A stretch of DNA of 64,000 bases, taken from the NCBI GenBank assembly GCA_965228475.1, contig OZ245817.1, positions 1,760,001 to 1,824,000 on the forward strand. Reading direction: 5' to 3'. The stretch comes from Myxococcota bacterium. GTDB lineage: Bacteria > Myxococcota_A > UBA9160 > JAFDDA01. The notes beneath the pieces are model-generated. The model worked only from the letters and a program-made list of their open reading frames with translations. It had not been told where the DNA came from and did no database searches. Below are positions 9,802 to 37,566 of the stretch, in pieces; the stretch's first letter is position 1; each line of letters opens with the position of its first letter. A program made the translations under genes and the position numbers.

Positions 9802-9836
9802 GGTGTGTGGCTCCTGGTCCGCTGCGCCCGGGCCCG

Positions 9837-10937
9837 TCAGTCGGGCGGCCGTGCGTAGCAGACGGTGTCGTAGAGGTTCTGGGAGTGGTGGCCCAGATGG
9901 AGGCGGTAGCCGGGAACGGTTTCCTTCAGGAGGATCGGAAGCTCCCAGAGGTCGCTCGGCCGGTGGTAGATGCAGATCGCGAGCTTCGGCGTCCGCTCGG
10001 TCAGCAGCGCCTTCGCGCCGGCGAGGGCTTCGCGCTCGGCGCCTTCGACGTCGAGTTTGATCCAGTCGACGCGGCCGGCGGTCTGCTCCCAGGCGAACTC
10101 ATCGAGGGCGACGACCCGGATCGCTTCGGTGCCGGGGGCCGATTCGCCGTCGGCGTTCGCTTCGGCCGTCGTGACGCGAAACTGTGACGGAGCCCCGTCG
10201 GTGGCGAGCCGGATCTCTCCGGTGCGGTTCCAGCAGCCGACGGGCTCGACCGAGACGCGCGCGCCGTGCGGGTGCTGGGCGACCGCTTCGCGCAGGCGTT
10301 CGAGGTTTTCCGAGGCGGGCTCGAAGGCGTGGACCCGGCCTTCGCTCCCGACGGCTTCCGCGTAGTCGAGCGAGGTCTCGCCGTCGAAGGCGCCGCCGTC
10401 GAAGATCCGCTCGCCCGGAAGCACGGGAACCTCCGGATGGCGGTAGGGCGGGGTCGGCGGCGGCAGGTCGCCCGGGTCGAGGGAGCGCCGGTGCGCGAGC
10501 ACCGCGTCGAAGATCGCTCGGGACTCCGGCTGGATCAGGCTTCGCGCGAAATGGATCTCGTCGCGGGCGTCGTCGTACACGGTTTCGTCGAAATGCCCCG
10601 ACCAGCGCGGGTCGCAAACGACGCTGCCGTCGAGAACGGGGCCCTCGTAGCCGTCCCCGCGGAGCTGCGCGGTCATCTCCCTCGCGTACATGCTCGCGGT
10701 CACGATGGTCTCGAAGCCCACGGCCGCGGCCTCTTCCGGGCCGAGGATGCGCGCTCCGCGGAAGCGGCCTTCGCGGTAGCTGTCGACGAAGGCCTCGGGC
10801 TTCAGGCCCAGGGCCGCCAGGGCCTCCGCGACGGCTTCACCGCCGGCGCCCGTTCCGAAGACCGCGAAGCGCCCGGGCGCCTCGAGGAAGCGCGTGAGCG
10901 CCGCGTTTCGAACGTCTCGCAAACTCTGCCTCACCAT
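9837..10937 (-). CDS. FkbM family methyltransferase with N-terminal Rossmann-like domain
   Basis: FDGGAFDGET, VHAFEP, IKLDVEGAE, LAICIYHRPSDLWELP. Confidence 0.9.
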   Translation of the reverse strand: MVRQSLRDVRNAALTRFLEAPGRFAVFGTGAGGEAVAEALAALGLKPEAFVDSYREGRFRGARILGPEEAAAVGFETIVTASMYAREMTAQLRGDGYEGPVLDGSVVCDPRWSGHFDETVYDDARDEIHFARSLIQPESRAIFDAVLAHRRSLDPGDLPPPTPPYRHPEVPVLPGERIFDGGAFDGETSLDYAEAVGSEGRVHAFEPASENLERLREAVAQHPHGARVSVEPVGCWNRTGEIRLATDGAPSQFRVTTAEANADGESAPGTEAIRVVALDEFAWEQTAGRVDWIKLDVEGAEREALAGAKALLTERTPKLAICIYHRPSDLWELPILLKETVPGYRLHLGHHSQNLYDTVCYARPPD

Positions 10938-11836
10938 GTGCCGTAGTCCGCCAGGCCGAGGCTCGCGACGAGCGCCCCGGTCCGTTCCCGATAGATCCGC
11001 TCGTGCTCGGCACCGAAGAAGTGCTGCCAGTCGCCGACGCGGGCGCGCCGCACGTGGTTCGGTGCGTCGGCGCGGGTGCGTTCCGGCTCGGTGTGGCGCA
11101 GGACGTCCGCCGCGAGGACGCGGTCCTCGACGCCCGCGAACTGCAGGAGCCGCGCAATCTGGCCGGCCCGATCCCCGACGAGCTCCTCGAAGCGCACGAG
11201 CTCGTAGCGGGAGGCCAGCGCGCGATAGGCCTCGACGTGACGGGCCCAGCGGTCGACGGAATTCGCGAAGTAGTCGAGCCGTCCGTAGAGCGCCTCGGGC
11301 GTGTCGATCCGGTACTCCGGGTGGCGCGCGAGCATCCGAGGGGAGGTGGCGTAGTGGATCCAGGAGTTGACGACGTCGCGCCCGTCGCGGATCAGGTAGA
11401 TCCAGCGCCGGCCCGGTCCGAGCAGGCGGGCGTGATCCTCCCGGGGCTCCTGGTGGGTCCAGAGCAGGGCGGCGTCGCGTTCGAAGCGCGCGAGATCCCG
11501 CAGCGCGAAGCGCGCCTTCAGGTGGCTGTTGCGGACGTAGACCTGCGCGTCGTGGACTTCCGCTTCGTCGAGGTCGCGCTGTTCCGGGAAGGAGAGCGGG
11601 ACGCCGTCGAGGGCGAAGAGGGAGTTCCAGCAGCCGGTCCGCGCCGCATGGGACTGGAAGGTTCCGGCGCGCTCCATGGCGGTGCGGAGCGTGCGGTAGA
11701 GGAGGTAGTTGCCCGACTTCTCGACGCCGCACTGGCCGACGAGCGGCTGAGCGCCCTTGCCGGAGGCGGGCCGCTTCGGCCGTTGCGTCGTTTTCGGCGG
11801 CAGCGGGCCGCGCGGATGGATCGCCTGGCTGGCCAT
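10931..11836 (-). CDS. PAPS-dependent sulfotransferase domain protein
   Basis: EKSGNYLL (5'-PSB-like), IYLIRDGRDVVNSW (3'-PB), VRFEEL, VRRARVGDWQHFF. Confidence 0.85.
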   Translation of the reverse strand: MASQAIHPRGPLPPKTTQRPKRPASGKGAQPLVGQCGVEKSGNYLLYRTLRTAMERAGTFQSHAARTGCWNSLFALDGVPLSFPEQRDLDEAEVHDAQVYVRNSHLKARFALRDLARFERDAALLWTHQEPREDHARLLGPGRRWIYLIRDGRDVVNSWIHYATSPRMLARHPEYRIDTPEALYGRLDYFANSVDRWARHVEAYRALASRYELVRFEELVGDRAGQIARLLQFAGVEDRVLAADVLRHTEPERTRADAPNHVRRARVGDWQHFFGAEHERIYRERTGALVASLGLADYGTW

Positions 11837-11884
11837 GCAGTCCCCACGAGCGCGCTCGCGCCGCTCGTCGAACGGAGTCGATCG

Positions 11885-11921
11885 GCCACCGGATTCCCGG
11901 CGCCTTGCCACCGGATTCCCG
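11885..11921. repeat. Perfect 15-bp direct repeat with 22-bp period upstream of the sulfotransferase
   Basis: GCCACCGGATTCCCG at 11885-11899 and 11907-11921. Confidence 0.75.
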
Positions 11922-11993
11922 TGTGGCTTCGGGCTGGATCGGCGCGCCTTGCGCCCGGCTTGACCTTTGTTGCGGGGGAGTTGCCGCTTCGGG

Positions 11994-13298
11994 CTAGGCC
12001 GGCGGGAAGGGCCGGTCGCGTCCGAGCGGGGCCTTTTGGCCCCGAAGTGTGGCGAGCACGTAGGGCCCCTGCGGAAGCACGGCCACCCGCGCGCTGGGCT
12101 GCTCGGTGAGCACCCGGGCAATGCCCTCCGCCGGGCTCGCGACCGGCTCGACGAACAGCCCGCGCTGGGCTTCGGCCGGGAGGCCGTCGCTGTAGAGCAG
12201 CACCCGGGCCCGCCGCCGCGCCTGGCACAGGTGCTGGACCATCCACTGGTCGATGGCGAAGAACTCGGGATTCTCGAGCTCGAGTTCGAAGGCGTCGGGG
12301 CCCGCCGATTCCCGCAGACACTTCTCGAAGGAGGCGCTGCCGACGCCACCGTCGAGGGCGGCGCACAGGAGGATGGTGCCGCCCGGGCGGACGATCCCCT
12401 GGGCGGTCGCGATCCCCTTGATCGCCTGATAGAAGGTCGCGTCGAGGGGGGCGCCGCCGCCGGAGGTCACGACGAGGTCCGCGGGCTCCGGAAGCGACAC
12501 GAGGGACTCGTCTTCGACGAAGCGCATCGCGTCTTCGTGGGAGGCTTCGACGTCGCCGCAGAAGATGCCGGCCACCCGGCGCTCGCGGTCGAGGGCCACG
12601 TTCACGGCGAAGTGGACGCCGACGGCGCGCACGACCTCGAGCAGGGCTTCGTGGAGCGGGTTGCCCTCGACGATGCCCGGCCCGATGTGCCCCTCGAGGA
12701 GCTTCGGGCCGTGGGCGAAGCGGATCGTCTCCGTCGCCGCGAGGCCCGGGCAGACGGCCTTGCGCCCGCCCGAGTAGCCGGCCATCAGGTGTGGTTCGAC
12801 GAGCCCCGTCACGATCCGCAGGTCGCTCTCGCAGAAGACGCGGTCGATGCGGATGGGCAGGCCGGCGCGCGTGGTGCCGAGATCCACGTGCGCGTCGGCA
12901 TCCCGCGCGTCGTGCTGGACGATGCGGAGGGTGCGCGCGAGCTCCGTTCCGAGCATCCCGTCGAGCTCCTCGGGCGTGCTCGGCCGGTGGAGTCCCGTCG
13001 CGACGACGATGCGAACCGCCTCGGGCGGAAGGCCGCCCCGCCGCAGGGCGTCGAGCAGGGGCGGCAGGAGCAGCGCGTTCGGGACCGGGCGCGTCGCGTC
13101 GCTGACGACGATGGCCGCGTCGCGGCGGCCGCGGGCGAGCGCTTCGAGCGGCGCGCACGCCGTGGGCCGGGCGAGGGCCTCGCGCAGCGCGGCTTCCGGG
13201 TCGGGGAGGGGCGGCACCGCGACCTTCTCGAGCACCCGGCTCCCGTCCGGCACCTCGACGGGCAGCGTGCCGCGTCCATGGGCGAGTTCGACCTGCAC
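11994..13298 (-). CDS. LarA-superfamily nickel-pincer racemase/epimerase
   Basis: SDATRPVPN, ATGLHR, HDA, EPHLMAGYSGGRKAVCPG, YQAIKG, DQW, PQGPY. Confidence 0.9.
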   Translation of the reverse strand: MQVELAHGRGTLPVEVPDGSRVLEKVAVPPLPDPEAALREALARPTACAPLEALARGRRDAAIVVSDATRPVPNALLLPPLLDALRRGGLPPEAVRIVVATGLHRPSTPEELDGMLGTELARTLRIVQHDARDADAHVDLGTTRAGLPIRIDRVFCESDLRIVTGLVEPHLMAGYSGGRKAVCPGLAATETIRFAHGPKLLEGHIGPGIVEGNPLHEALLEVVRAVGVHFAVNVALDRERRVAGIFCGDVEASHEDAMRFVEDESLVSLPEPADLVVTSGGGAPLDATFYQAIKGIATAQGIVRPGGTILLCAALDGGVGSASFEKCLRESAGPDAFELELENPEFFAIDQWMVQHLCQARRRARVLLYSDGLPAEAQRGLFVEPVASPAEGIARVLTEQPSARVAVLPQGPYVLATLRGQKAPLGRDRPFPPA

Positions 13299-23289: not shown

Positions 23290-24885
23290 CTAGGGCAACG
23301 CCGGCGGGACCGAGAGCGGCCCGCCCGGGCCGAGCGCGAAGCCGGCCCCGATCCACACCACCAGCATCACCAGCCAGGCGGCGGTGAAGGCGATGGCGTA
23401 GGGCAGCATCAGGGCGACGAGCGTGCCGATCCCCGAGGCCGGCGCGTGACGCCGCATGAAGACGAGCAGGATCACCATGTACGGATTCAGCGGGGTGATC
23501 ACGTTCGAGACGGAGTCGCCGACCCGGTACGCCACCTGGGTGAGCTCCGGGCTCACGCCGACGGCCATGAACATGGGTACGAAGACCGGCGCGAAGAACG
23601 CGTACTTCGCCGACATGGAGCCGATGAAGAGGTTCCCGAGCGCCACGAGTCCGACGAAGGCGACCATCAGGGCCGAACTCGGGAGCGCGGCCTGCACCAG
23701 GATCTCCCCGCCCCGGATGGCGAGCATCTCGCCGAGCCCCGTATAGGCGAACCACGCGATGAACTGCGCGGCGAAGAAGGCGAGCACGATGTAGGAGCCC
23801 ATGCCCGACATGGTCTCGGCCATCATGCGGGAGACGTCGCGGTCGCTCCGGATCTCCCCGGTGCTCGCGCCGTAGACGATGCCGGGCACGAGGAACCCGA
23901 GGAAGAGCAGGGGCACGATCACCGGGATCCAGCGGGGCGGGCTGCCTTCGGCGGCATGGAGCGGGGCGCCGGGGATCCAGGTGGCCGCGGCGAAGACGGC
24001 GAGGGTCGCGGCCAGGCCCGCGACCGCCCGGCGCAGGGCGCGGCGCTGCTCGTCCGTCAGGCGCTGGGCTTCGAGCGCTGCGTCGTCGACCGGTGCGGGG
24101 CCGCCCGCCTCCGCGGAGCGGCCCTGCCAGCGGGGCTCCACCCAGAGGGCCGTCACCGCCCAGCCGACCCCCGTCAGCAGGAAGGTCGAGGCGATCATGA
24201 ACCACCAGTTCGCGCTGGCCGCGACCTGGTAGGTGGGGTCGCGCAGGCGCGCGGCGGCGGTGGAGAACTCGGCGAGCATCGGGTCGAGGCCGGTGATGAA
24301 GAGGTTCGCGCTGAAGCCCGCCGAGACCCCGGCGAAGACGATCCCGAGACCGACCAGCGGCGAACGCCCGACCGCGCCGTAGAGGGCCGCCGCCAGCGGC
24401 GGGAGCACGACGTACCCCGCATCGATCCCCATGGACGACATGACGCCGAGGAACATCAGCGTGGGAGCGAGCAGCCATTCCGGCACCGAGAGCATGGCCG
24501 AGCGGAGGAGGGCGCCGATGAAGCCGCTGCGCTCCGCGACGCCGATCCCGAGCAGGCCCACCAGCACCACGCCGAGGGGCGGGAACTGGACGAAGTTCTT
24601 CACGAGGTTCTGGAGCGCCCAGTAGACCCCGTCGGCCGAGAGCAGGCTCCTGGCGCCCACCGCCACGCGCACGAGTTCGCCGTCCTGGGTGACGGTCTTC
24701 TCGACCTGCCAGCCGGCGCTGGCGGCGATGGCGGAGAGGGCGGCGACGCCGAGGGCGCCCAGCAGGAACAGGGTCGCCGGGTCGGGGAGGGCGTTGCCGA
24801 GGCGTTCGATCGCGCCCAGGAAGCCGCGGGGCCGGGCGTCGTCCCCGGCCGGTCCGGGCGGGTCGCTGGCCGGGTCAACCGCCAC
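23290..24885 (-). CDS. AbgT family transporter
   Basis: IERLGNALPDP, FAGVSAGFSAN, LAFFAAQF, YRVGDSVSNVITPLNPY. Confidence 0.93.
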   Translation of the reverse strand: MAVDPASDPPGPAGDDARPRGFLGAIERLGNALPDPATLFLLGALGVAALSAIAASAGWQVEKTVTQDGELVRVAVGARSLLSADGVYWALQNLVKNFVQFPPLGVVLVGLLGIGVAERSGFIGALLRSAMLSVPEWLLAPTLMFLGVMSSMGIDAGYVVLPPLAAALYGAVGRSPLVGLGIVFAGVSAGFSANLFITGLDPMLAEFSTAAARLRDPTYQVAASANWWFMIASTFLLTGVGWAVTALWVEPRWQGRSAEAGGPAPVDDAALEAQRLTDEQRRALRRAVAGLAATLAVFAAATWIPGAPLHAAEGSPPRWIPVIVPLLFLGFLVPGIVYGASTGEIRSDRDVSRMMAETMSGMGSYIVLAFFAAQFIAWFAYTGLGEMLAIRGGEILVQAALPSSALMVAFVGLVALGNLFIGSMSAKYAFFAPVFVPMFMAVGVSPELTQVAYRVGDSVSNVITPLNPYMVILLVFMRRHAPASGIGTLVALMLPYAIAFTAAWLVMLVVWIGAGFALGPGGPLSVPPALP

Positions 24886-25360
24886 GCTTCTTCCCCCATC
24901 GCTCCCGCAGGCGGTCTTCCCGGGCGAGGAGCCACGGGGAGATCGCGACGCCGAGCAGGCCTCCGAAGGTATCGAGCACCACGTCGAGCCACTCGCCGCT
25001 TCGCACGGTGAGGAAGGATTGCCGGAGTTCGTCGGCCGCCGCCACCACGATGACGAGTCCGAGGGCGGGGAGGGCGGCGTCCCAGAAGGAGATCCCCGGG
25101 CGCATCCGGTCCATGGCCCGGAAGGTGAGGATGGCCGTCACGCCGTACTCGAACACGTGCGCGCACTTGCGGATGTAGAACATGAGCCCGCGGATCTCCC
25201 AGGGCTTCCACTCCGGGAGGAGCCACTCGAGGAACGGGCCGAGGAAGCGGGAGGTCTGCTCGGAGCTGAATCCGGCGCCGCCGAGGGCGAAGATGAGCAG
25301 GAGCCAGAGCCCGACCGGAACCCACGGGAGCAAACGATGTCGGTCGAGGCGCTTCGGCAC
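24875..25360 (-). CDS. VanZ family membrane protein
   Basis: FSSEQTSRF, IRKCAHVFEYG, DELRQSFLTVRSG, DVVLDTFG. Confidence 0.88.
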   Translation of the reverse strand: MPKRLDRHRLLPWVPVGLWLLLIFALGGAGFSSEQTSRFLGPFLEWLLPEWKPWEIRGLMFYIRKCAHVFEYGVTAILTFRAMDRMRPGISFWDAALPALGLVIVVAAADELRQSFLTVRSGEWLDVVLDTFGGLLGVAISPWLLAREDRLRERWGKKRGG

Positions 25361-25420
25361 GGCGGGCGAACGTAGCAAGCCGCCGCCCCTGGACGGGTCG
25401 AGCGGGATAGGATCTCGAGC

Positions 25421-26419
25421 ATGGGAACCCGCCGGATCGGTCTCGTCTACGACGTCTTCGGGAGCTATCCCGCGCGCCCGGGCGCTCCGGCCGACGCGGA
25501 GGCCGAGTACGAGCCCGAGGCCACGGTCGCCGCTCTGGCGGGCGCCATCGAGCGGCTCGGCCACGTGCCCGTGCGCCTGGGCAACGCCCACGCCCTGCTC
25601 GCCGCAGGGGGCCGCACGGAGCTCCCGGCGCTCGATGCGGCCCTCGCCATCAGCGAAGGCTTCGGGACGCGCAACCGGGAAGCCTGGGCCCCGGTGCTCC
25701 TCGACATGCTCGAAGTTCCGGCGCTCGGCTCCGACGCGCTCTCGCTGTCGCTCTCGCTCGACAAGGCGTGGACCAAGGACGTCGTGGGCGCCGCCGGGGT
25801 CCCGGTCACGGCGCAGTGCTCGCTCGCGAGTTCCCGCGAGATCGAAAAGGCGAGCCTTCCCGGACCCTTTCCGCTCTTCGTGAAACCTCGCTGGGAAGGC
25901 ACGGCCAAGGGCATCGACGCCGGGGCCCGGGTCGAGGACGAGGCGGCGCTGGCCCGGCGCGTCGACGAGGTCGCCGCCCGCTACGGGCAGCCGGCGCTGG
26001 TCGAACCGTTCCTGCCCGGGGCCGAGTACACCGTCACCGTCGTCGGGCACGACCCGCCGCGCGCCCTCCCGGTGCTCCAGCGCGCCCTCGAGCGCGCGAG
26101 CGGGATCGGCCTGCACGCCGTCGAGGGCGAAGGCGACGCCCTCGACCACCACGCCCCCGGCGACCTCGACGCCGCGCTCGAAGAGGAACTCGCGGCCCTG
26201 GCGCTCCGCGCCTTCGAGGCGCTCGCCTGCCGCGACTTCGCCCGCGCGGACTTCAAGCTCGATGCCGCGGGCCGGCCCTTCTTCCTCGAGATCAATCCGC
26301 TCCCGACCTTCGCGCCGGACGGCTCCTTCGGGATCCTGGCGGAGCTCGAGGGCCGCCCGCTCGAAGCGCTCCTGGCCGACGTGCTCGGCGAGGGGCTGCG
26401 ACGCCTCGGCCTCGCATAG
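25421..26419 (+). CDS. D-Ala-D-Ala ligase-like ATP-grasp protein (atypical)
   Basis: EGFGTRNREA, LGSD...LDKAWTK, FVKPRWEGTAKGI, RADFK, LEINPLPTF. Confidence 0.88.
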   Translation: MGTRRIGLVYDVFGSYPARPGAPADAEAEYEPEATVAALAGAIERLGHVPVRLGNAHALLAAGGRTELPALDAALAISEGFGTRNREAWAPVLLDMLEVPALGSDALSLSLSLDKAWTKDVVGAAGVPVTAQCSLASSREIEKASLPGPFPLFVKPRWEGTAKGIDAGARVEDEAALARRVDEVAARYGQPALVEPFLPGAEYTVTVVGHDPPRALPVLQRALERASGIGLHAVEGEGDALDHHAPGDLDAALEEELAALALRAFEALACRDFARADFKLDAAGRPFFLEINPLPTFAPDGSFGILAELEGRPLEALLADVLGEGLRRLGLA

Positions 26420-26486
26420 CCCGCCGGGCTCCGGGCCCGGGGGTGCCGCGGGAGCCGGACCCGCCCAGCCGTTATCTTCGGGCCCC

Positions 26487-27590
26487 ATGCCCGCCGAGCG
26501 AGCCGACGCGAACCGCCCCGAGTGGCGCGACTGGACCTGGCAGATGCGCCACCGCGTGCGCAGCGCGGAGGATCTCGCGCGCTTCGTCGCACCCGATCCG
26601 GACGAGGTCCGGGCGGTCGCGGCCCTGGCGGATCGCTTCCGCTTCGTGATCACGCCCTACTACGCGAGCCTCATGGACCCCGAGGACCCCGCGTGTCCGA
26701 TCCGCCGCCAGGTCGTCCCGCGTACGGCCGAGCTCGACGACCCGGCCGGCCTGGCGGACCCTCTCGACGAAGTCGCGCACTCGCCGGTGAAGAACGTGAT
26801 CCGCGTCTACCCGGACCGCATCGCCTTCTGCGTGAACAACGAGTGCGCGCTCTACTGCCGCTACTGCCTGCGCAAACGCATGGTCGGCGACGAAGACTGG
26901 ACGATGCGCCGGGCCGAGCTCTCCGAGGCCCTTGCGTGGATCCGCGAAACCCCGGCCATCCGCGACGTCCTGCTGACCGGCGGCGACCCCCTGGTCTTCT
27001 CCGACGATCGCCTCGGCTGGCTGCTCGGCGAGCTGCGGGCGATCCCGCACGTCGAGATCATCCGGCTCGGGACGCGGCTCCCCGTGACCCTCCCGTTCCG
27101 CGTGACCGACGATCTCTGCCGGCTGCTCGCGGAGCACCACCCGGTCTGGCTGAACACCCACTTCAATCATCCCCGCGAGCTCACGCCGGAGGCCGCGGAG
27201 GCCTGCGACAAGCTCACCCGCGCCGGCGTCCCGGTCGGCAACCAGAGCGTCCTCCTGCGCGGCATCAACGACGACACGGCGACCATGAAGGCGCTCTGCG
27301 AAGGCCTCGTCCGCATGCGCGTGCGGCCCTACTACTGCTATCAGGCGCAGCTCCTCGAGGGGACGGGCCACTTCCGCGTGCCGATCGAGGAGGGCATGGC
27401 GCTCTTCCGCGAGATGCGGGGCCGGACGAGCGGCTTCGCGATTCCGCTCTACGTGCTCGACACGCCCTACGGAAAGGTCCCGCTGACCCACCCCCACGTG
27501 CGCGGCCGCGAGGGCGACGACGTCGTGGTCGAGACCTACGAGGGCAAGCTCTGGCGGGAACCGAACCCGTTGGACGAGACGGCCGGTTGA
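26487..27590 (+). CDS. KamA-family radical SAM/PLP 2,3-aminomutase
   Basis: WRDWTWQ, ITPYY, CALYCRYCLRKR, LLTGGDPL, IRLGTRLP, HFNHPRE, NQSVLLRGIND, DTPYGK. Confidence 0.93.
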   Translation: MPAERADANRPEWRDWTWQMRHRVRSAEDLARFVAPDPDEVRAVAALADRFRFVITPYYASLMDPEDPACPIRRQVVPRTAELDDPAGLADPLDEVAHSPVKNVIRVYPDRIAFCVNNECALYCRYCLRKRMVGDEDWTMRRAELSEALAWIRETPAIRDVLLTGGDPLVFSDDRLGWLLGELRAIPHVEIIRLGTRLPVTLPFRVTDDLCRLLAEHHPVWLNTHFNHPRELTPEAAEACDKLTRAGVPVGNQSVLLRGINDDTATMKALCEGLVRMRVRPYYCYQAQLLEGTGHFRVPIEEGMALFREMRGRTSGFAIPLYVLDTPYGKVPLTHPHVRGREGDDVVVETYEGKLWREPNPLDETAG

Positions 27591-29131
27591 CCGAAGGGGC
27601 CAAGCGGGTCGGCGCCGCGGCACTTCTGCTCTCCGCGAGCGTCCTGCTCTCGCGGGTGCTCGGCTACGTGCGCGAGGCGGTCCTCGCGGCGGCGGTGGGG
27701 ATCGGTCCCGCCACCGATGCCTACAAGGCGGCCTTCCAGATCCCGGACGTCCTGAACTACTTCCTGGCCGGCGGCGCGCTCTCGATCCCCTTCATCCCCC
27801 TCTACTCGCGCTACCTGGAACGCGCCGACGAAGAGGGCGCCGCCCGGGCGCTCGGGACCGTCTTCGGGACCACGATGGCCCTGGTGAGCGTCGCGACGGC
27901 CTTCCTCTTCTGGCAGGCGGACGCCTTCGTCGCGCTCTTCTTCCACGACTTCTCGCCCGAGCTCCAGGCCCAGACGGTCCGCCTCACGCGCATCATCCTG
28001 CCGGGGCAGATCTTCTTCTTCGCCGGTGGGATCCTCCGCGCGGCGCTGATGGCGCGCGGGAACTTCGCCGCCCACGCGCTCGCGCCCGTCCTCTACAACG
28101 TGTGCATCATCCTCGGCGGGCTGCTGCTCGCGCCGCGCATGGGCGTCGAGGGCTTCTCCTGGGGCTGCCTCGCCGGGGCGATCGTCGGGCCGTTCCTCGT
28201 TCCGGTGGTGGACGCCCGGCGCCGGCGCCTGCGTCTCGCCCCGCGCGTGCAGCCGCTCTCGGCGGACTTCAAACAGTACGCGCGGCTCCTCGCTCCGCTC
28301 TGTCTCGGCGCGACGCTGCTCACGGTCGACGAATGGTTCGACCGCTACTTCGGCCATCAGATCGGCGTCGGCGCGATCGCCGTGATCACCTTCGCCCGGA
28401 CGCTCATGCTCGTGCCGATCGCGGCGGTGGGGCAGGCCGTGGCGACGGCCGCGCTCCCGGCCTTCTCGCGTCTCCACGCCGCGGGAAAGCCTCGCGAGCT
28501 GAACAGCCTCCTGCAGCGCACGCTCGAGATCTCCCTCGGCCTGGCGATCTGGCTGGCAGCGGGACTCTGGGCGCTCGCAGACCCGGCCGTCCGCTTGCTC
28601 TACGAGCGCGGGGCCTTCACCAGCGCGGACAGCGCTGCCGTCGCCCCCGTGCTCGCGCTGCTCTGCTTCGGCGTTGCCGGCTGGGTCGTGCAGCAGATCA
28701 GCGTGCGCGCCTTCTACGCCCGCGAGCAGATGTGGGCGCCGATGCTGCTCGGCACGGCCATCGCCGCGCTGGCCGTGCCGCTCTACTGGTGGCTCGGGGC
28801 CGAGCGCGGGGTCGAAGGGCTCGCCATGGCCGGCGCGATCGCCGTCAGCGTGAACGCGGTGGCGACCCTGGTGCTCGGCCGCGTGCGCCACGGGGCGCCC
28901 GACCTCGGCGAACTCCTGCAGACGGCGCTTCGCGTGGGCGCGGTCGCGGGCATCGGAGCCGTGGTGGCGGTGCGCTTCGTCGAAGGCCGCCCGGGCTTCC
29001 TCGGGGCCCTGCTCGACGCCGCGGCGGGCGGCGCCGTCTTCCTCGCCCTGACCCTGCCCGGCATCGCCTGGGTCGCACCGAAGCTCCGGCACGCCCTGGT
29101 CGCGCGCCTGCGCCGCTCGCCCGCGCCGTGA
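27587..29131 (+). CDS. murJ: Lipid II flippase MurJ (MviN)
   Basis: [38 protein letters not shown] start overlaps the aminomutase stop. Confidence 0.9.
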
Positions 29132-32100
29132 GCTGGTCCTTCTGGATCGACCGCGGGGGCACCTTCACGGACTGCATCGGCCTCGCCCCGGACGGCGGGC
29201 TCCACGTCGCGAAGGTGCTCTCCTCGGACACGGCGCCGGTGGAGGGGATCCGTCAGATCCTCGGGCTCGGGTCCGAGGAACCGATCCCGCCCTGCACGGC
29301 GAAGATCGGGACGACCCTCGCCACCAACGCGCTCCTCGAGCGCCGCGGCGCGCGCACCCTGCTCGTGACCTCGCGCGGTCTCGGGGACGTGCTTCGCATC
29401 GGGACCCAGGAGCGGCCGGAGCTCTTCGAGCTGGCGATCGAGAAGCCGGCGCCGCTCGAGGAGGCGGTCCTCGAGGTCGAGGCCCGCATCGGCGCCGAAG
29501 GCGAGCGGGTCGCGGCGCTCGATCGGGAGGAACTCGAACGGGGCCTCGCCGCCGCGCGGGAGCAAGGGGTCGCCTCCGTCGCCGTGGCGCTTCCGCACAG
29601 CTACCGCGACCCGGAGGACGAGCGCCGCGTCGTCGAGGCCGCGCGGGCCGCGGGTTTCTCCCATGCGGTCGCCTCGGCCGATCTCGTGCGCGAGCTCGGC
29701 TTCCTCGCGCGCGGGGAGACGGCGGTGGCCGACGCCTACCTGACGCCGCTCCTTGCGGATCACGTGCGCGAGCTCTCGGAATCGCTGCCCGGCTCGCGGC
29801 TCTCCTTCATGCAGTCGAGCGGAGGCCTCTCCGAGCCCGCGCGCTTCCGGGGCCCGACGGCCCTTCTCTCGGGGCCGGCCGGCGGCGTGGTCGGCGCGGC
29901 GCGGGTCGCGCGGGAGGCCGGCTTCGCCGGCGCCGTGGGCTTCGACATGGGAGGCACCTCGACGGACGTCTCCCTGGTGACCGAAGGCGAGATCGAGCGC
30001 GCCTTCGAATCGGAGGTCGCCGGGGTGCGCGTGCGCGCACCGATGATGCGCATCCACACGGTGGCCGCCGGCGGCGGGTCGCTCTGTCGCTTCGACGGGT
30101 TCCGCCTGACCGTGGGCCCCGAGAGCGCCGGCGCGAGCCCCGGGCCGCTCTGCTACGGGCGCGCGGATGCCTCGGGCGCGCCGCTGGCAGAGGAGCTCGC
30201 GCTCACCGACGTGAATCTCGCCCTCGGCCGCCTCCAGCCGGACCGCTTCCCGTTCCCGATCGCGCGCGAGCCCGTGGACGCGGCGCTCGCCGAACTCGAG
30301 GGCTCGCTCGCCGCCTCCGGGCAGCGGCTCGTCGCCGAGGAGATCGCCGCGGGCTTCGTCGAGGTGGCGAACGCCGCGATGGTCCAGGCCATCGCGGAGG
30401 TCTCGGTCGCACGCGGCGTCGACCCGCGCGGGCTGGCGCTGGTCGGTTTCGGCGGCGCCGCGGGGCAGCACGCCTGCGCCATCGCCCGCGCGCTCGGCAT
30501 GGAGACGGTGCTGCTCCACCCCTTCGCCGGGCTGCTCTCGGCCTACGGGATCGGGAGCGCCGAGCACGTCTGGGACGGGCAGGGCGACGCCGGGCGCGTG
30601 CCCCTGGAAGCCGACGGACTCCCGGCCGCCGTCGTGGATCTCCACCGCGAGCTCGAAGCCGAGGGCCGGGCGGCCCTGCTCGCCGAGGGCGCAGCGGAGG
30701 AAGGCCTCGTCGCCGAGCCCCTGCTCGACCTCCGCTACGCCGGAACCGAGACCGCGCTGACCGTGCGCGCGCCCGCCGCGGGCGGTTGGCCCGCGGCCTT
30801 CGCGGCGACCCACCGGACGCGCTTCGGCTACGTCCGCGAAGGACGCCCGGTCGAGATCGTGACGGCCCGGGTGCGCGTGAGCGCGCCGGGGGAGGGCGGG
30901 GAGGTGGCGCCGAGGGCGCCCGACGCCGGAGCTGCGCCCGCGGCGCCCGTCCGCCACGCCTCGGTCTGGTTCCCGGGGGAGGGGCGACTCGAGACGCCGG
31001 TCTTCGAGCGCGACTCGCTCCCGGCCGGAAGCACGGTCTCGGGACCGGCGCTCCTGCTCGAAGGGACCGGGACCGTCGTCGTCGATCCGGGCTTCGAGGG
31101 CGAGATCGACGCACGCGGCACCCTCGTGCTGTGCGACCGGGACCGGGGCCAGACCCGGGCCGCGAAGCCCCGCCACGACCTCGAACGCGCGGACCCGGTC
31201 CGGCTCGAGGTCTTCGGCAACCGCTTCATGTCGATCGCCGAGCAGATGGGCGCCGTCCTCCGCAACACGGCCTTCTCGACCAACATCAAGGAGCGCCTCG
31301 ACTTTTCCTGCGCGGTGTTCGACGGGGAGGGCGGGCTCGTCGCCAACGCGCCCCACATCCCCGTCCACCTCGGTGCCATGGGCGAGACCGTACGGGCCGT
31401 GCGCGCCCGCTTCCCGGACCTGGCCGCGGGGGACGTCGTGGTGAGCAACGACCCCTACGAGGGCGGCTCGCACCTGCCCGACGTGACGGTCGTCTCCCCG
31501 GTCTTCGTCGGCGGAGCGGCCACGCCGGACTTCTTCGTCGCCGCCCGCGGCCACCACGCCGACATCGGCGGGAAGACCCCGGGATCGATGCCGCCGGACT
31601 CGACGACGCTCGAAGAAGAAGGCGTCGTGCTGCACGCCTTCCGCCTGGTCGCGGGCGGGGTCTACGACGAGGCGGGCGCCCGCGAGCGCCTCGCCGCAGG
31701 GCCGTTCCCGGCGAGGAATCCCGAGGACAACCTCGCGGACTTCGAGGCCATGGCCGCGGCGAACCGCGCCGGAGCGGGGCTCCTCGAAGCGATGGTCGAG
31801 CGCGAGGGTCTCGAAGCCGTGCGCACGACGATGCGTCAGCTCCAGGAGGCCGCCGCCGGCAAGGTGGCCCGGGAGATCGGCGGCCTCCCGGACGGCGAGC
31901 ACACCTTCCGCGACGCCCTCGACGACGGCACCGAGATCGCGGTGCGCCTCACCGTGGCAGGCGAGCGCATGACGATCGACTTCGACGGGACGGCCCCGGC
32001 CCAGCCCGGCAACCTGAACGCGCCCCGGGCGGTCGTCCACGCGGCGATCCTCTACGTCCTCCGCTGCCTCGTCCACGAACGGATCCCGCTGAACGGGGGC

Positions 32101-32715
32101 TGCCTCGATCCCGTCGAGATCCGCATCCCGGCCGGCAGCCTGCTCGACCCGCCGCCCGGCCACGCCGTGGTGGGCGGCAACGTCGAAACCTCCCAGCGCG
32201 TGGTCGACGTCCTGCTCGGCGCCCTCGGCAGGGCCGGCGCGAGCCAGGGCACCATGAACAACGTGACCTTCGGCGACGCCCGCTTCGGCTACTACGAGAC
32301 GATCGGCGGCGGGGCCGGCGCGGGCCCGGACTTCGCCGGAGCCTCGGGCGTCCACACCCACATGACGAACACCCGCATCACCGACCTCGAAGTGATCGAG
32401 ACCCGCTACCCGGTCCGCATCGAGCGCTTCGCCCTGCGGCGCGGGACGGGCGGGGCAGGGCGCCAGCCCGGGGGCGACGGCCTGGTCCGCGCCTACCGCT
32501 TCCTCTCGCCGGTCGAGGTCTCGCTTCTGACCGAACGCCGGTTGACGGCGCCCTACGGGGCGGCCGGGGGCGCCCCGGGCGCGCCCGGCGCGAACCGCGT
32601 CGAGCGCGCGAACGGCCGGGTCGAGCTGCTGGGTCCGAAGGCACGGGCCGAACTCGCCGCGGGCGATCGGCTCGTGGTGGAGACCCCGGGCGGCGGAGGC
32701 TTCGGCGCCGCGTGA
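29128..32715 (+). CDS. Single-chain 5-oxoprolinase / hydantoinase A+B fusion
   Basis: [64 protein letters not shown]. Confidence 0.93.
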
Positions 32716-32797
32716 GGCGCTCGTACCGCCTCGAGGCCCTGCACCCGAATCGACACTTGGCCTTGCCGCCCGGCCCCCCGCGTTCTAGCTTCGGCCC

Positions 32798-32873
32798 GGG
32801 CGCGTAGCTCAATTGGCAGAGCAAGTGGCTCTTAACCACTAGGTTCGGGGTTCGATTCCCCGCGCGCTCACCA
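32798..32873 (+). tRNA. tRNA-Lys(CTT)
   Basis: Cloverleaf GGGCGCG...CGCGCTCACCA; anticodon arm AGTGG-CTCTTAA-CCACT; GGTTCGA T-loop. Confidence 0.96.
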
Positions 32874-32984
32874 GCCCACCCTGCGAGATTGCCGCGCGGT
32901 TGCGCATCGCACCCGCGTCGGCTCGACACCCCGGGCTCCCGCTCGCTACTCACAAGCGGGCGACGCTGCCGCCCGGAGCATGCC

Positions 32985-33773
32985 ATGGGGTCCATCCTTC
33001 GAATCGCGCTCGTCGCGCTCGGCCTGACTTCGACCGGGCTGCTCCCGGCCTCGAGCGTTGCCGCGACCCTCGACCCGAGCCGGGACGCCCGGCAGCTCGT
33101 GCGCGTCGACGTCTGGACCGACGCCGACGGCCCCGAAGGGCTGATCCAGGAGCAGGAAGAGATCGAGGTCTTCGACCTCTTCCCCTTCGACGAGCGGCTG
33201 GAGCTCCAGCGGGTGGCCGGCGCGCTCGGCGCCTCGGCGCTGGCCGAACTCGAGACCGTGATCACACCGACGCGGGTCGAAGCGCGCGCCTTCACCGACA
33301 GCATCGCCTCCGCGCTCGGGTCGCAGTACGCGCGCGGCGTCGGTCAGGCGCTCTTCCGGCTGGAGTTCACGGTGGCGGAACCGACGCCCTTCGACCTCAC
33401 TCTCGTGGTGCTCGGGGTCGGGGAGGCGGACGTCGACGTCTCGCTGGAGAGCCTCGGCGAGTTCGACGAGCTCGAGCTCAACGGCGAGCCCGGGGAAGAG
33501 CGGCTCGAGATCTCCGGCGTCTTCCAACCCGGGCAGTACTACAACCTCTACGGGTTCGCGTTCATGCGATCGGACGCCGGGCAGGGGGAACTCCCGGAGC
33601 TCGGCTCCGCGGGCTTCGAGATCGTTCTCACGGTGCCGGAGCCGGGACCGATCCCGCTGCTCGGGATGGGGGTCCTGGCCGGCGCCTCATTGAAGCGCCG
33701 CTCGCATCCATGCACAGGTCGGCGCGCGTCGGCTACGGCGCGAAGGCTGACGGCCCGGGCACTCCCTGGATGA
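32985..33773 (+). CDS. PEP-CTERM surface protein
   Basis: Signal peptide; C-terminal VPEPG + hydrophobic segment + KRR. Confidence 0.8.
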   Translation: MGSILRIALVALGLTSTGLLPASSVAATLDPSRDARQLVRVDVWTDADGPEGLIQEQEEIEVFDLFPFDERLELQRVAGALGASALAELETVITPTRVEARAFTDSIASALGSQYARGVGQALFRLEFTVAEPTPFDLTLVVLGVGEADVDVSLESLGEFDELELNGEPGEERLEISGVFQPGQYYNLYGFAFMRSDAGQGELPELGSAGFEIVLTVPEPGPIPLLGMGVLAGASLKRRSHPCTGRRASATARRLTARALPG

Positions 33774-36700
33774 ACCCCGGCACGAAGAGCAGGAAGTCGT
33801 CGATGTTGACGAAGCCGTCGCCGCTCATGTCGGTTTCGTTCGCGCCCGGACTGCCGGAGATGAAGTCCGGCAGGAAGAGCAGGAAGTCGTCGATGTTGCA
33901 GAAGCCGTCGTCGTTGAAGTCGCAGTCGCAGGCGTTGCCGTAGCCGTCGGCGTCGCCGTCGAGCTGGTCGTTCGGGCCTCCGTCGGGGCCGTTCGGGACC
34001 TCGGTGCAGTTGTCCTCTTCGTCGAAGAGGCCGTCGTCGTCCGCATCGCGGGAGCCGATCCGCACGGTCCGGTGCGCGACGGACTGGGACCCGTCGACGA
34101 TCCCGAGGAAGCGGAGCAGCGTCCCGTCCGGCGTGCCGGCGGTGACGACCGGCGGCATGGAGACCGTGATCTCCTGGCCCGGCAGCAGGTTGCCGAGCTG
34201 CCACTGGACCCGCTCGCCGGGGCTGCAGCTCGAGTTCAGGTTGCCCGAGACCGTGCAGATTCCACCGCCCGTCGTCGTGCCCTGGCTGAAGGCGTTCAGG
34301 TTGTCCGGGACCCGGGCTTCGAGGACCACGTCGAAGCGCGTCACGGTGTCCTGGTTCTGGACGGTCAGGTCGATCTGGAGTGCTTCGAGGGGCTGGGCCG
34401 GGTCCGGTTCCGCGTCGATCGTGAGGGAGAGCGGCGCGTCGTCCATGCTGGCGGTGACGAAGCGGGCGCGTGCCTCCGCCGGCGTGCCGGCGTCGTCGCG
34501 CAGGAGAGCGGACCCGAGGAGCAGGACCTGGGCCGCCGGATCGAGGACGCGCAGCGTCGCCTCCCGGGTGCCTCCCTGCCCCGGAGCCACCGGGCCGAGG
34601 TTCCATTCGACGTGGTCACCCACGAGGGAACCGCCTTCGTTGGCGGACAGGAAGCTCGTGCCTTCCGGGAGTGCCAGCCGCAGGGTCGTTCCCGTGCGGG
34701 TGCCGGGCCCGCGGTTCGCGAAGGTGAGGTTCACCGTGAGGTCGCCATCGCGCGCGACCGGGTCGGGGCTTTCGTCCGCCGCCAGCTCGAGCTGCGGCGC
34801 AGTCTCCACCGCCGTCGCCACGCCCGCGAGCGCCTGGTCGCCGCCGCCTTCCTCGGCGCGCACCCTCCAGTCGATCAGAGTTCCGCCCGGCGTTCCGCTG
34901 GCCACGCCGGCCGGGACGGTCACGGTCCGGTGATCGCCCGCCGGCAGCTCTCCGATCGTCCAACGCAGGCGCTCTCCCGCGCTGCACACCGAGTTGAAGT
35001 TGCCCGAGATGTTGCAGGCGCCGCCGCCCGTGCTCAGGTTCTGGCTGATGCCGTTCACGCCGTCGGGCGTTCGCGTCTCGACCGCGACGTCGAAGAGGGA
35101 GAACGGGCCCGAGTTGGCGACGGTGATCTCGACGCTCTGCGGCTCGCCGGGCCGCACGGGGTCGGGGTGGACCTCGAGGGCCACCTCGAGCGGCGAATCG
35201 TCCAAGATGGCGGTGACCGCGGCGGCGCGCGCGGCGTTGCGCGGGAAATCGTCGTCGCCGATCGCGGCCCGGGCGCGGATCTGCTCGCCGTCCGCGAGAG
35301 CCGCTTCGGTCGCGAACTCCGCCCGGCGCTCGCCACTGCGCCCGGCCGGGAGCACTCCGAGGTTCCAGACGACGTCGTCGCCCACGAGGGCTCCGCCGTC
35401 GCTGGCGGAGACGAAGCTCGTGCCGGGGGGAACCGGGAGACGCAGACTCGTCCCGGTGACCGTGCTGGCGGATCGGTTGGCGTAGACCAGGTCGTAGTGC
35501 AGCGCGCCATCGGAGGCCGCCGGGTCCGGTGCGTCGGTCAGGAGGAGTTCGAGGGCCGGGCTCTCCTGGACGAGGACGGCCTGGCTTGCCGTGACCTGCT
35601 CACCGCCGCCCTCGCTCAGCGTGGCGCGCCAATGGGGCAGGCGGCCATCCGCGGTGCCGGCCGTGACCGTGGCCGGCAGGCTGACCGTGACGCGTTCGCC
35701 CGCGCCGAGCGTGCCGAGGGCCCATTGGAGCCGCTCGCCTCGACTGCACGTCGAGTTGAAGTTCCCACCGATCTGGCAGGTGCCGCCGCTCGAGGTGAGG
35801 CTCTGCGCGAAGCCGTTGGTCCGCTCGGGGACTCGGGTCTCCATCGTCACGTCGACGAGCGGGAAGGGGCCGGCGTTGCTGGCGGTGAGCTCGACGATCT
35901 GGGCCTCGCCGGGCCGGACGGGATCCGGCGTGACCGCCAGGCCGAGACGGAGCGCCGGGCCGCTCTGGACGGCGGCGACGTCGGCCGCGCGGGCGGTCCC
36001 GGCCGGGAAGGAATCGTCGGTGATGCGTGCGAGGGTGCGGAGGAGCTCGCCGTCTCCGAGGCCCGGGTCCGTGGCCAGGGTTGCGTAGCGCGTGTCGCCG
36101 GCGCCCGGGGTCACCGGGCCGAGGTTCCACTGCACGGCGCCGTCCACGACGGCACCCCCGTCGCTGGCCGCGACGAAGCTCGTGCCGGGCGGGAGCGGGA
36201 GCCGCAGGACGACGCCGGTGGCCGTGGAGACGCTCGCGTTCGAGAAGATCACGCTGTAGAGGAGGTCTTCATCGGGGTTGGCCGGATCGCGCTCCGCGTC
36301 GACCGCCAGCTCGAGGGCCGGTTCCGAGGCGACGATCACGGTCTGGCGCGCGAGGGCCTGTTCGCCGCCGCTCTCCGTCAGCCAGCCGCGCCAGGGCAGG
36401 AGCCGGCCGTCCGCCGTCGAGCCCGTGACGATCGGTGGCAGGGAGACCGTGACGCGCTCTCCGGCCGAGAGGGTGCCGAGCTCCCAGCGGAGCCGCTCTC
36501 CGGTGCTGCAGGTCGAGTTGAAGTTGCCGGAGACGCTGCACAGCCCGCCCTCGCTCGAGAAGCTCTGGCCGAAGCCGTCGATCTGCGCCGGGATGCGTGT
36601 CTCGAGCACGACGTCGCTCGCCGGCACCGGCCCGCGGTTGGTGGCGGTGAGCTCGACGTGGAGGGCGCCTCCGGCCCGCACCGGGTCCGGGTTCACCGCG

Positions 36701-37566
36701 ATTCCCAGCTCGAGGCCGACGGGCGCGACGCTCCCGTCGACGGCGGTGACGCTCGTCGCCGTGGCGGACCCGCCGGCGTTGGTGACGGTGGCCTCGGCCG
36801 GGATCAACGTTCCGTTGCCGAGACCGCCGTCCACCGCGAAGACGGCCTGGCGGGTTCCGCCGGCACCGGACGGCAGAGTCCCCAGCGCCCACGAGATGGT
36901 TCCCGCGGCGAAGATCCCGCCGTCGCTCGCGGAGACGAAGGTGGTTCCCGCCGGCACCGGCAGGGTGAGGTTGGCGCCGAGCGCGGTGACCGCGCCGACG
37001 TTCGCGAACGCCAGCTCGTAGGTCAGGTTCTCCCCGGGCGCGACCGGGTCGGCGTCTTCATCGAGGGCGAGTTCGAAGATCGGCGCCGCGTCCACGCCGA
37101 CGGTTTCGCTCGCCGTGACCGGCCCGCCGTCGTCCGCTTCGACCTCGAAAGTGAGGGCGGCGCCGGTGGCGGCGCTCACGAACGGCGCGAAGCTGACGGT
37201 GGCGCTGCCTCCCGGGGGAAGCACAGGGATGATCCAGGCGATCGTCTCTCCGGCGTCGCAGTTGGTGTTGAAGTTCCCGCTGCCCGAACACTCGCCGTCG
37301 CCCGTCGTGAGGCTCTGGCTGAAGGACGAGATGCCCGACGGGAGCACGGACTGCAGTTCGACGTCGATCAGCCCGAGGACGTCGGTGTTGGTGACCGTGA
37401 ACTCGACGTGGACCGGTTGGCCGGTCCGAACGGGGTTGGGGTTCACCTCGACCCCGAGCTCGAGCCCCCGGGCCGGGCTGGCGACGGCCAGCGCTCCGAG
37501 CAGAAAGAGACCCAATCCACCAGATCCCCACCGACCGATCCACATGAGCTTCAACACCAGCGCCAT
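33733..37566 (-). CDS. Large secreted protein with nine DUF11-like Ig repeats and a TSP3/dockerin-like Ca-binding tail
   Basis: Signal peptide; repeated L-E-L-x5-PDPV...N...W-x-LG-x-L units; tail DADDDG...DNC...DGDADGYGNACDCDFNDDG...NIDDFLLF (twice). Confidence 0.85.
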   Translation of the reverse strand: MALVLKLMWIGRWGSGGLGLFLLGALAVASPARGLELGVEVNPNPVRTGQPVHVEFTVTNTDVLGLIDVELQSVLPSGISSFSQSLTTGDGECSGSGNFNTNCDAGETIAWIIPVLPPGGSATVSFAPFVSAATGAALTFEVEADDGGPVTASETVGVDAAPIFELALDEDADPVAPGENLTYELAFANVGAVTALGANLTLPVPAGTTFVSASDGGIFAAGTISWALGTLPSGAGGTRQAVFAVDGGLGNGTLIPAEATVTNAGGSATATSVTAVDGSVAPVGLELGIAVNPDPVRAGGALHVELTATNRGPVPASDVVLETRIPAQIDGFGQSFSSEGGLCSVSGNFNSTCSTGERLRWELGTLSAGERVTVSLPPIVTGSTADGRLLPWRGWLTESGGEQALARQTVIVASEPALELAVDAERDPANPDEDLLYSVIFSNASVSTATGVVLRLPLPPGTSFVAASDGGAVVDGAVQWNLGPVTPGAGDTRYATLATDPGLGDGELLRTLARITDDSFPAGTARAADVAAVQSGPALRLGLAVTPDPVRPGEAQIVELTASNAGPFPLVDVTMETRVPERTNGFAQSLTSSGGTCQIGGNFNSTCSRGERLQWALGTLGAGERVTVSLPATVTAGTADGRLPHWRATLSEGGGEQVTASQAVLVQESPALELLLTDAPDPAASDGALHYDLVYANRSASTVTGTSLRLPVPPGTSFVSASDGGALVGDDVVWNLGVLPAGRSGERRAEFATEAALADGEQIRARAAIGDDDFPRNAARAAAVTAILDDSPLEVALEVHPDPVRPGEPQSVEITVANSGPFSLFDVAVETRTPDGVNGISQNLSTGGGACNISGNFNSVCSAGERLRWTIGELPAGDHRTVTVPAGVASGTPGGTLIDWRVRAEEGGGDQALAGVATAVETAPQLELAADESPDPVARDGDLTVNLTFANRGPGTRTGTTLRLALPEGTSFLSANEGGSLVGDHVEWNLGPVAPGQGGTREATLRVLDPAAQVLLLGSALLRDDAGTPAEARARFVTASMDDAPLSLTIDAEPDPAQPLEALQIDLTVQNQDTVTRFDVVLEARVPDNLNAFSQGTTTGGGICTVSGNLNSSCSPGERVQWQLGNLLPGQEITVSMPPVVTAGTPDGTLLRFLGIVDGSQSVAHRTVRIGSRDADDDGLFDEEDNCTEVPNGPDGGPNDQLDGDADGYGNACDCDFNDDGFCNIDDFLLFLPDFISGSPGANETDMSGDGFVNIDDFLLFVPGFIQGVPGPSAFAP

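Follow-up and report, generated by a model that had tools for sequence, protein, structure and literature searches.

The window analysed here is a 64-kb stretch of DNA (G+C 72%) from a Myxococcota bacterium whose genome is assembled as one contig of 5.0 Mb (96% complete). At positions 25421–32715 it carries four co-oriented genes, which encode a Ddl-like ATP-grasp ligase, a KamA-family aminomutase, MurJ and a fused HyuA/HyuB protein. KamA enzymes make beta-amino acids, Ddl-fold enzymes make dipeptides and MurJ flips lipid II. An initial annotation had read the four genes as one cell-envelope pathway, in which a beta-amino acid is made and ligated into a dipeptide that may enter peptidoglycan or another lipid-linked polymer, with the oxoprolinase-type enzyme recycling a lactam.

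Genes were called from codon usage and families were assigned from Pfam and NCBIfam scans. The Pfam scan covered 54 of the 55 predicted genes and the vanZ open reading frame (ORF), leaving out two partial ORFs at the window ends; twelve of the scanned genes have no Pfam match. The locus comprises the following features.

25421–26419, + strand: Ddl-like ATP-grasp ligase, 332 residues; PF07478 (78 bits) is the sole Pfam match
26487–27590, + strand: KamA-family 2,3-aminomutase of the radical S-adenosylmethionine (SAM)/pyridoxal phosphate (PLP) type, 367 residues; TIGR00238 score 340.9, cut-off 199.2
27587–29131, + strand: MurJ lipid II flippase, 514 residues; TIGR01695 score 258.3, cut-off 235.55
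29128–32715, + strand: fused HyuA/HyuB protein, 1195 residues; PF05378, PF01968 and PF02538 (655.7 bits)
about 24875–25330, − strand: VanZ-family membrane protein gene, start codon uncertain; PF04892 51.4 bits, NF037970 56.1 bits
23290–24885, − strand: AbgT-family transporter gene; PF03806 533 bits
32798–32873, + strand: tRNA-Lys(CTT), found with ARAGORN and Rfam, 82 nt past the hyuAB stop codon

Reading the bases places the ligase stop codon TAG at 26417–26419 and the kamA ATG at 26487, leaving a gap of 67 nt, followed by 4-nt overlaps between kamA and murJ (TTGA, 27587–27590) and between murJ and hyuAB (GTGA, 29128–29131). This layout and the divergent vanZ beside the ligase are exactly as first described. 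The abgT gene overlaps the end of vanZ by 11 nt, and the opposite strand upstream of the ligase continues with genes for a metallo-beta-lactamase-fold protein, an AMP-binding enzyme and CstA. The co-oriented tRNA-Lys(CTT) forms the downstream edge of the four-gene string. A scan of 24800–33300 returned no consensus promoter or terminator, a result that is uninformative in DNA of 72% G+C.

Specificity residues of the ligase and KamA

The NCBIfam Ddl models score the window ligase far below their cut-offs (TIGR01205, 95.6 against 245.65; NF002378, 106.7 against 243). A separate canonical ddl, for which the initial annotation had proposed to look, is present 2.3 Mb away and reaches 346.5 bits in a genome search that gives the window ligase 94.8 bits. 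The AlphaFold2 model of the ligase (predicted local distance difference test score (pLDDT) of 88.1) retrieves only Ddl and Van ligases, the best Protein Data Bank (PDB) neighbours aligning with a template modelling (TM) score of ~0.7 at 17–27% identity, and this structure search gave no clue to the substrate.

Alignment with Escherichia coli DdlB shows that the residues we take to be those of ATP and Mg binding and catalysis (Lys97, Lys144, Glu180, Arg255, Asp257, Glu270 and Asn272) are all kept and invariant in the ligase family. The positions that presumably line the substrate site (His63, Ser150, the omega-loop Lys215–Tyr216, Gly276 and Ser281–Leu282) are largely replaced, with His63 exchanged for Glu, Lys215 for Val, Tyr216 for Glu, Gly276 for Thr and Ser281 for Gly, and the replacing residues are themselves conserved within the family. 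Two further changes are conservative (Ser150 to Thr, Glu15 to Asp), and the ligase carries a 9-residue insert near the N-terminus and two additional residues in the Gly-rich loop. The regions modelled with low confidence (residues 11–30, 81–86 and ~231–240) coincide with these specificity loops. The ligase thus shares with Ddl, VanA and VanG the whole fold, the ATP and Mg residues and the catalytic Arg, Asp, Glu and Asn, but differs from them in its low identity, in scores of less than half the cut-offs and in the replacement of the omega-loop Lys-Tyr and of the Ser281 region. Because the canonical ddl lies elsewhere, the scores fall below the cut-offs and the substrate-loop residues differ, the window ligase is not the housekeeping Ddl; judged from its residues, this ATP-grasp enzyme looks active on a different pair of substrates and is not a D-Ala-D-Ala ligase.

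The same genome encodes a further Ddl-like paralog at another locus (L005, C1:548956-552675), of 341 residues, with a PF07478 match of 92 bits and a Ddl-model score of 99.3. The ORF that precedes it matches a putative zinc metallopeptidase family exactly at the 27-bit cut-off of that family. Elsewhere in the phylum, ligase homologs of 34–43% identity lie in frames of ~700 residues. These were considered as ligase–KamA fusions and rejected, as they are double Ddl-like proteins and belong to a different system. In 20 regions from other Myxococcota families (L102–L121), proteins of ~630–780 residues consist of two Ddl-like halves, and in 10 of these regions they are followed by a Peptidase_S58 gene (377–381 bits), which we take to belong to the DmpA/BapA family of D- and beta-aminopeptidases. 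Neither murJ nor hyuAB is found near these genes, and kamA occurs in a single region (L114).

KamA, the sole KamA-family gene product of the genome, belongs to its family by TIGR00238 score, cluster motif (CALYCRYCLR), PLP lysine and carboxylate arginine, yet all the specific models score it below their cut-offs: 447 against 650 for glutamate (TIGR04368), 433.8 against 525.4 for the lysine enzyme AblA (TIGR03820), 409.2 against 600 for arginine and 243.8 against 369.3 for EpmB (TIGR03821). Aligned to the solved lysine 2,3-aminomutase 2A5H (377 bits), it retains the CxxxCxxC motif, Arg134, Asp330 and the PLP lysine Lys337. The position of Asp293 is occupied by Gln, and the loop in front of Lys337 lacks two residues (LDTP-YGK as compared to DAPGGGGK). 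In 2A5H, we assume that Asp293 and Asp330 bind the substrate side chain, Arg134 its carboxylate and Lys337 the PLP, and that a basic residue at the Asp293 position is a trait of glutamate aminomutases.

The low AblA and EpmB scores and the exchange of Asp293, with Asp330 kept, set KamA apart from the lysine 2,3-aminomutases. Its best-scoring specific model is that of glutamate 2,3-aminomutase, with which it shares the CLR motif after the cluster cysteines, but its score lies below the cut-off and it has Gln instead of a basic residue. Two homologs named glutamate 2,3-aminomutase by the Joint Genome Institute (JGI; P0175 and P0176) have Lys at the Gln position and Thr where the window KamA keeps Asp. 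Since Gln occupies the Asp293 position and all specific models score below their cut-offs, the substrate of KamA is probably neither lysine nor glutamate. Both enzymes look active, as the ATP, Mg and catalytic residues of the ligase and the cluster cysteines, Arg134 and PLP lysine of KamA are kept.

Pairing of the ligase and kamA genes

Relatives of the ligase occur in at least 558 species-representative genomes. We used the best 80 loci (59–75% identity), 72 of which are Myxococcota-type and 8 Rokubacteria-type, located their neighbours by tblastn and counted as denominators only the loci with enough flank to judge. The start of kamA is no more than 600 nt from the end of the ligase gene in 56 of 59 loci, murJ is found within 5 kb of the ligase in 49 of 51, hyuAB within 10 kb in 29 of 41 (the remaining 12 loci of the order being without it) and a divergent vanZ within 800 nt in 40 of 66, while abgT lies upstream in part of the loci. 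One locus (L073) has ligase and kamA followed by hyuAB with no murJ between, and some have inserts of 1–5 kb between murJ and hyuAB. The four-gene arrangement is more than chance and recurs in species-level relatives.

In a sample of 301 genomes of the phylum, 47 of them in the window's own order, ortholog-level ligases (57–70% identity) are confined to this order, where 38 of the 47 genomes have one; none was found in the 10 sampled genomes of a neighbouring family of the same class. Both orthologs are present in 37 of the 47 genomes and are adjacent in 35, on different contigs in one and split at contig ends in one. Two genomes of the order have kamA without the ligase, in both cases at contig ends. 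The opposite-strand genes cstA, abgT and that of the AMP-binding enzyme are also often conserved across the loci of the order, and the whole region is syntenic there, so that adjacency by itself is weaker evidence.

Evidence for the pair that does not depend on this synteny comes from fusions and from unlinked genes. BLASTP domain mapping shows that 44 of 71 long KamA homologs bear a domain alignable to the window ligase, in the order ligase–KamA in 33, KamA–ligase in 9 and as fragments in 2. Among the 33 ligase–KamA fusions, 15 are close relatives (73–80% KamA identity) and the rest share 44–56%; the source names of the fusions include Myxococcota, Chloroflexota, Desulfoferrobacter and Clostridia. 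Other long KamA homologs carry GNAT domains or other ATP-grasp domains. In three of three Rokubacteria-type genomes, a ligase ortholog (~66% identity) and a KamA ortholog (78–80%) are encoded at separate places. Given the fusions in both domain orders and the co-occurrence without linkage, there is strong comparative evidence that the ligase and KamA would act in one pathway. A complex prediction from the ligase and KamA alignments, run with no controls, scored 0.00 and 0.00, which speaks neither for nor against a physical complex. Two predicted proteins in the database (P0139 and P0190, 856 and 1094 residues) have both a KamA and a MurJ portion, which probably reflects gene calls that run through the 4-nt overlap and not true fusion.

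These data bear on the reading that genome streamlining brought four unrelated genes side by side at the locus. The general synteny of the region, opposite-strand genes included, agrees with such packing, but the fusions, which come in both domain orders and from several phyla, contradict it for the ligase–KamA pair, as does the co-occurrence of both orthologs when unlinked, and we give the absence of any functional link very little credence.

Metagenome contigs were scanned with an alignment of distant Q-type fusions, and the best 80 loci were kept (G+C 27–76%). We call Q-type the KamA signature CLR..., YQ[AC]Q and LDTP-YGK, read by alignment position. Of the 59 KamAs at the genome loci, 58 carry it, as do 14 of the 80 metagenome loci, namely 9 of the window's own lineage and L162, L123, L124, L125 and L178; the other 66 have Asp at both positions (Asp/Asp). 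Among the aligned long homologs, it is confined to fusions of the ligase–KamA order. In the 9 own-lineage loci, murJ follows in 7 and hyuAB in 5, the others ending too early. The remaining 71 loci, of which 37 span at least 10 kb, gave no match to either gene. These 71 loci are arranged as follows.

KamA then two Ddl-like ligases: 28 loci
KamA then one ligase: 13 loci
ligase then KamA: 8 loci
KamA then three ligases: 1 locus
KamA alone: 21 loci

Pairs of KamA and Ddl-like enzymes therefore occur elsewhere, both as fusions in several phyla and as neighbouring genes in metagenomes, as the initial annotation had anticipated. Of the 109 immediate neighbours scanned at the distant KamA loci, three are enzymes of the cell wall (one Mur ligase, one YkuD transpeptidase, one penicillin-binding protein), which by a rough estimate is about the chance level. 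The intermediate relative L162 has a ligase of 53% and a Q-type KamA of 65% identity, separated by a histidine kinase gene, and no cell-wall or HyuAB gene was found within the scanned 15 kb; a CMD-family gene lies near the pair.

Two further arrangements were seen among these relatives. A widespread cassette among loci L130–L201 has an Asp-type KamA ahead of two Ddl-like ligases; the next gene encodes a small GNAT in 12 loci and a histone-deacetylase-family protein in 8, with a C-terminal GNAT domain in 4 of the latter. We know of no characterised product for this cassette. One of the Rokubacteria-type genomes has, at another locus (L100, G001:C16:16000-35999), a second module in which an Asp-type KamA paralog of 43% identity comes after two Ddl-like ligases.

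A putative two-enzyme module and its neighbours

Our interpretation, to which we attach a rough probability of 0.55, is that the ligase and KamA constitute a self-contained two-enzyme module and that murJ and hyuAB are housekeeping neighbours outside its chemistry. KamA, as a radical SAM and PLP enzyme with a [4Fe-4S] cluster, would shift the amino group of a free L-amino acid from the alpha carbon to C3, yielding a beta-amino acid. The Ddl-fold ligase would then spend ATP, via an acyl-phosphate, to couple this beta-amino acid with another small molecule as an amide. The product would be a dipeptide-like metabolite and might serve as a cytoplasmic solute or another small metabolite, a guess that is the weakest step of the scheme. 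The sequence data show the identities of the genes, the pairing and the fusions, which catalytic residues are retained and which specificity residues altered, and that murJ is single-copy; which reaction comes first, what substrates are used, what is formed and what it serves for are inferred. As for the claim that a beta-amino acid is made and then ligated, the part that concerns cooperation of the ligase and KamA is supported by adjacency, fusions and unlinked co-occurrence, whereas its extension to a four-gene envelope pathway is not.

In this module, murJ and hyuAB would share the transcription string of the pair in one Myxococcota order and nothing of its chemistry; both appear dispensable to it since they are missing from the 71 unrelated loci and from L162 and do not lie downstream at the 8 Rokubacteria-type loci. 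The link of the pair to murJ and hyuAB is weak, both adjacencies being confined to the one order, so that the synteny proposed as a check holds for murJ within the order and fails outside it. MurJ, an equivalog-level member of TIGR01695, is the sole MurJ over the cut-off in the genome (257.8 bits in the genome search), the next match reaching 46.7 bits; no second murJ, another proposed check, is thus present. The same holds for four of four further genomes of the order that were searched, where the best MurJ by a wide margin (216–273 bits against at most 83 for the next) is again the one encoded after kamA. Because it is the only one in the genome, this MurJ must serve ordinary lipid II, and it is probably the housekeeping flippase. 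The caveat of the initial annotation that the murJ link could be incidental is accordingly the better reading.

The HyuA/HyuB protein combines the HyuA N-terminal, HyuA and HyuB domains in one chain, a domain set of the fused 5-oxoprolinase type. It resembles the eukaryote-type fused 5-oxoprolinases and hydantoinases in domain order and length and matches the 1288-residue PDB chain 7hk5 over its full length (452.5 bits), but the depositors name this chain N-methylhydantoinase, and caprolactamase models score HyuA/HyuB far below their cut-offs. The genome has one further Hydantoinase_B gene. A genome search found no PxpA, and the genome is therefore without a PxpABC-type 5-oxoprolinase, which leaves the ordinary 5-oxoprolinase job open to HyuA/HyuB and makes a role as general 5-oxoprolinase plausible.

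Several observations weigh against the two-enzyme module. In three related loci (L031, L045 and L084), murJ directly follows the ligase and kamA is missing. The genomes G006 and G007, whose loci are without kamA, have a KamA homolog of only 30–31% identity, and their ligases look intact in the alignment; the 96% complete genome G022 has the ligase and no KamA match at E ≤ 1e-80. The 4-nt overlap implies co-translation with murJ, and the arrangement is kept across the order despite the divergence of MurJ, whose identity is mostly 42–59% and falls to 27–30% in seven loci, one of these being a Pfam-confirmed MurJ (299 bits). Finally, the 8 Rokubacteria-type loci, which are closely related and counted as one lineage, all hold a block of genes for 5-formyltetrahydrofolate cyclo-ligase, an SDR protein, MurB, the ligase ortholog and a CMD-family protein (at 7032–13151 in L023). 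The ligase ortholog there directly follows an equivalog-level murB (400.4 against a cut-off of 231), one of two MurB genes per genome, and a homolog of HyuA/HyuB (~31% identity, fused or split) is encoded ~5 kb upstream on the opposite strand in 6 of these 8 loci. As each Rokubacteria-type genome has 7–10 Hydantoinase_B matches, chance placement of this homolog is not negligible. Recognised post hoc, this second lineage with the ligase near a Mur gene and a HyuAB-family gene keeps readings that involve the envelope or a lactam alive.

An envelope pathway would have the ligase form a dipeptide, for example of D-Ala and the beta-amino acid, that enters the stem peptide or a lipid-linked precursor flipped by MurJ, with VanZ as a related factor. 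It accounts for overlaps of the kind seen in translationally coupled operons, for the murJ that follows in the order even at its lowest identities and still follows the ligase where kamA is missing, for the murB that precedes the ligase ortholog in the Rokubacteria-type lineage and for the divergent vanZ, and it agrees with Ddl and Van ligases being the nearest structural relatives of the window ligase. We nevertheless regard it as unlikely: the sole MurJ has ordinary lipid II to serve, murJ is found at none of the 71 unrelated KamA loci and is not near the orthologs of the Rokubacteria-type lineage and L162, the opposite-strand cstA, AMP-binding and abgT genes are conserved along with it, cell-wall neighbours at distant loci are at about chance level and the residues at the Ddl positions His63, Lys215/Tyr216 and Ser281 all differ. 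Together with the missing PxpA, these points argue against the four-gene pathway as first proposed. In a more specific form, which we hold to be slightly less probable still, a dipeptide that includes the beta-amino acid, at its end or elsewhere, would in this Myxococcota order replace D-Ala-D-Ala on part of lipid II and be flipped by the co-translated sole MurJ, amounting to a constitutive, chromosomal Van-like remodelling of the stem peptide; the murB that precedes the ligase in the Rokubacteria-type lineage would then be a trace of the same link, as would the divergent vanZ. Were the envelope reading true, it would reveal a new kind of peptidoglycan precursor chemistry.

The lactam reading treats murJ as incidental and has HyuA/HyuB reopen a lactam formed by cyclisation of the ligase acyl-phosphate intermediate or of the product. 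The downstream hyuAB in 29 of 41 loci fits this role, as do its position directly after kamA in L073 and the Rokubacteria-type homolog, whose presence within ~8 kb in 6 of 8 loci has a chance of a few percent by a rough estimate. This homolog is, however, only ~31% identical and on the other strand, 12 of the 41 loci of the order are without hyuAB within 10 kb, the gene is found at none of the 71 unrelated loci and a general 5-oxoprolinase role suffices in a genome without PxpA. We consider lactam recycling, which the initial annotation had assigned to this enzyme, quite improbable.

Among known KamA-family pathways, the aminomutase is combined either with an acetyltransferase, to make an osmolyte, or with a lysyl-tRNA synthetase (LysRS) paralog that acts on elongation factor P (EF-P). 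The former is represented by AblA and AblB, a lysine 2,3-aminomutase and a beta-lysine N-acetyltransferase that make the osmolyte N-epsilon-acetyl-beta-lysine. The window pair resembles AblA/AblB in that a KamA-family aminomutase has a single tailoring enzyme as its partner, fused to it in relatives, for capping the beta-amino acid, and KamA–GNAT fusions are among the homologs we found; it differs in that the partner is an ATP-grasp ligase and not a GNAT, in the Gln at the Asp293 position and in its AblA score below the cut-off. The Pfam scan detected no EF-P, EpmA, GNAT or lysine-fermentation family among the scanned window genes, in agreement with what the initial annotation had reported, and thus no GNAT beside the aminomutase. 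EpmB and EpmA, which carry out the beta-lysylation of EF-P, likewise pair a KamA-family enzyme with one that uses ATP to place the beta-amino acid on an amine, but EpmA is a LysRS paralog and not an ATP-grasp enzyme, the window KamA scores below the EpmB cut-off and no efp gene lies nearby.

A non-orthologous replacement of EpmA and EpmB, in which the pair would put a beta-amino acid on a protein lysine such as that of EF-P, has some appeal. ATP-grasp enzymes such as RimK and LysX modify proteins, the EF-P of this genome has a Lys-type PGKG tip, the best EpmA-like match is a full-length LysRS and no EpmA was found in the genome, and its only KamA shares 33% identity with E. coli EpmB. Yet none of the loci examined contains an efp gene or any other link to translation genes, and the single-protein fusions have no recognisable protein-binding domain, which makes protein modification a very improbable role.

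Other parts of the window contain features apart from this locus. Six co-oriented genes on the − strand (6817–13298) encode an ATP-grasp protein of the L-amino-acid-ligase type (LAL_C2 and ATP-grasp_3) together with a Zn-dependent dehydrogenase, a protein of the transaldolase/FSA family, an FkbM methyltransferase, a sulfotransferase and a LarA-like protein; this string may be a small-molecule biosynthesis cluster holding a second unusual ligase of the window. The flagellar hook genes FlgD and FlgE lie at 409–2640 (+ strand); the relatives of the genome are labelled Myxococcota. A tRNA-Asp (49333–49409) is followed by ~2 kb with no called gene, up to 51409, and the 50–52 kb bin has a G+C of 0.63 as compared to ~0.72 elsewhere in the window; the gene-free stretch may be the remnant of an inserted element. 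At 32985–37515, a gene for a 262-residue protein with no Pfam match converges with one on the opposite strand for a 1260-residue DUF11-repeat protein, and the 3′ ends of the two share 41 nt; judged by eye, the C-terminus of the 262-residue protein resembles a PEP-CTERM sorting signal.

A literature search, with subscription journals largely outside it, found no publication on a pair of KamA and an ATP-grasp or Ddl-like enzyme, none on the residues of glutamate 2,3-aminomutase and only an unrelated one for Asp293 and Asp330. The label D-alanine–D-alanine ligase is wrong for the family of the window ligase. The ligase–KamA pairing is widespread, with ligase relatives across hundreds of species genomes and fused forms in several phyla, and the natural fusions offer a single protein that can be expressed for assays. 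The combination of a KamA with a Ddl-fold ligase points to an uncharacterised beta-amino-acid metabolite and to an aminomutase specificity not yet assigned.

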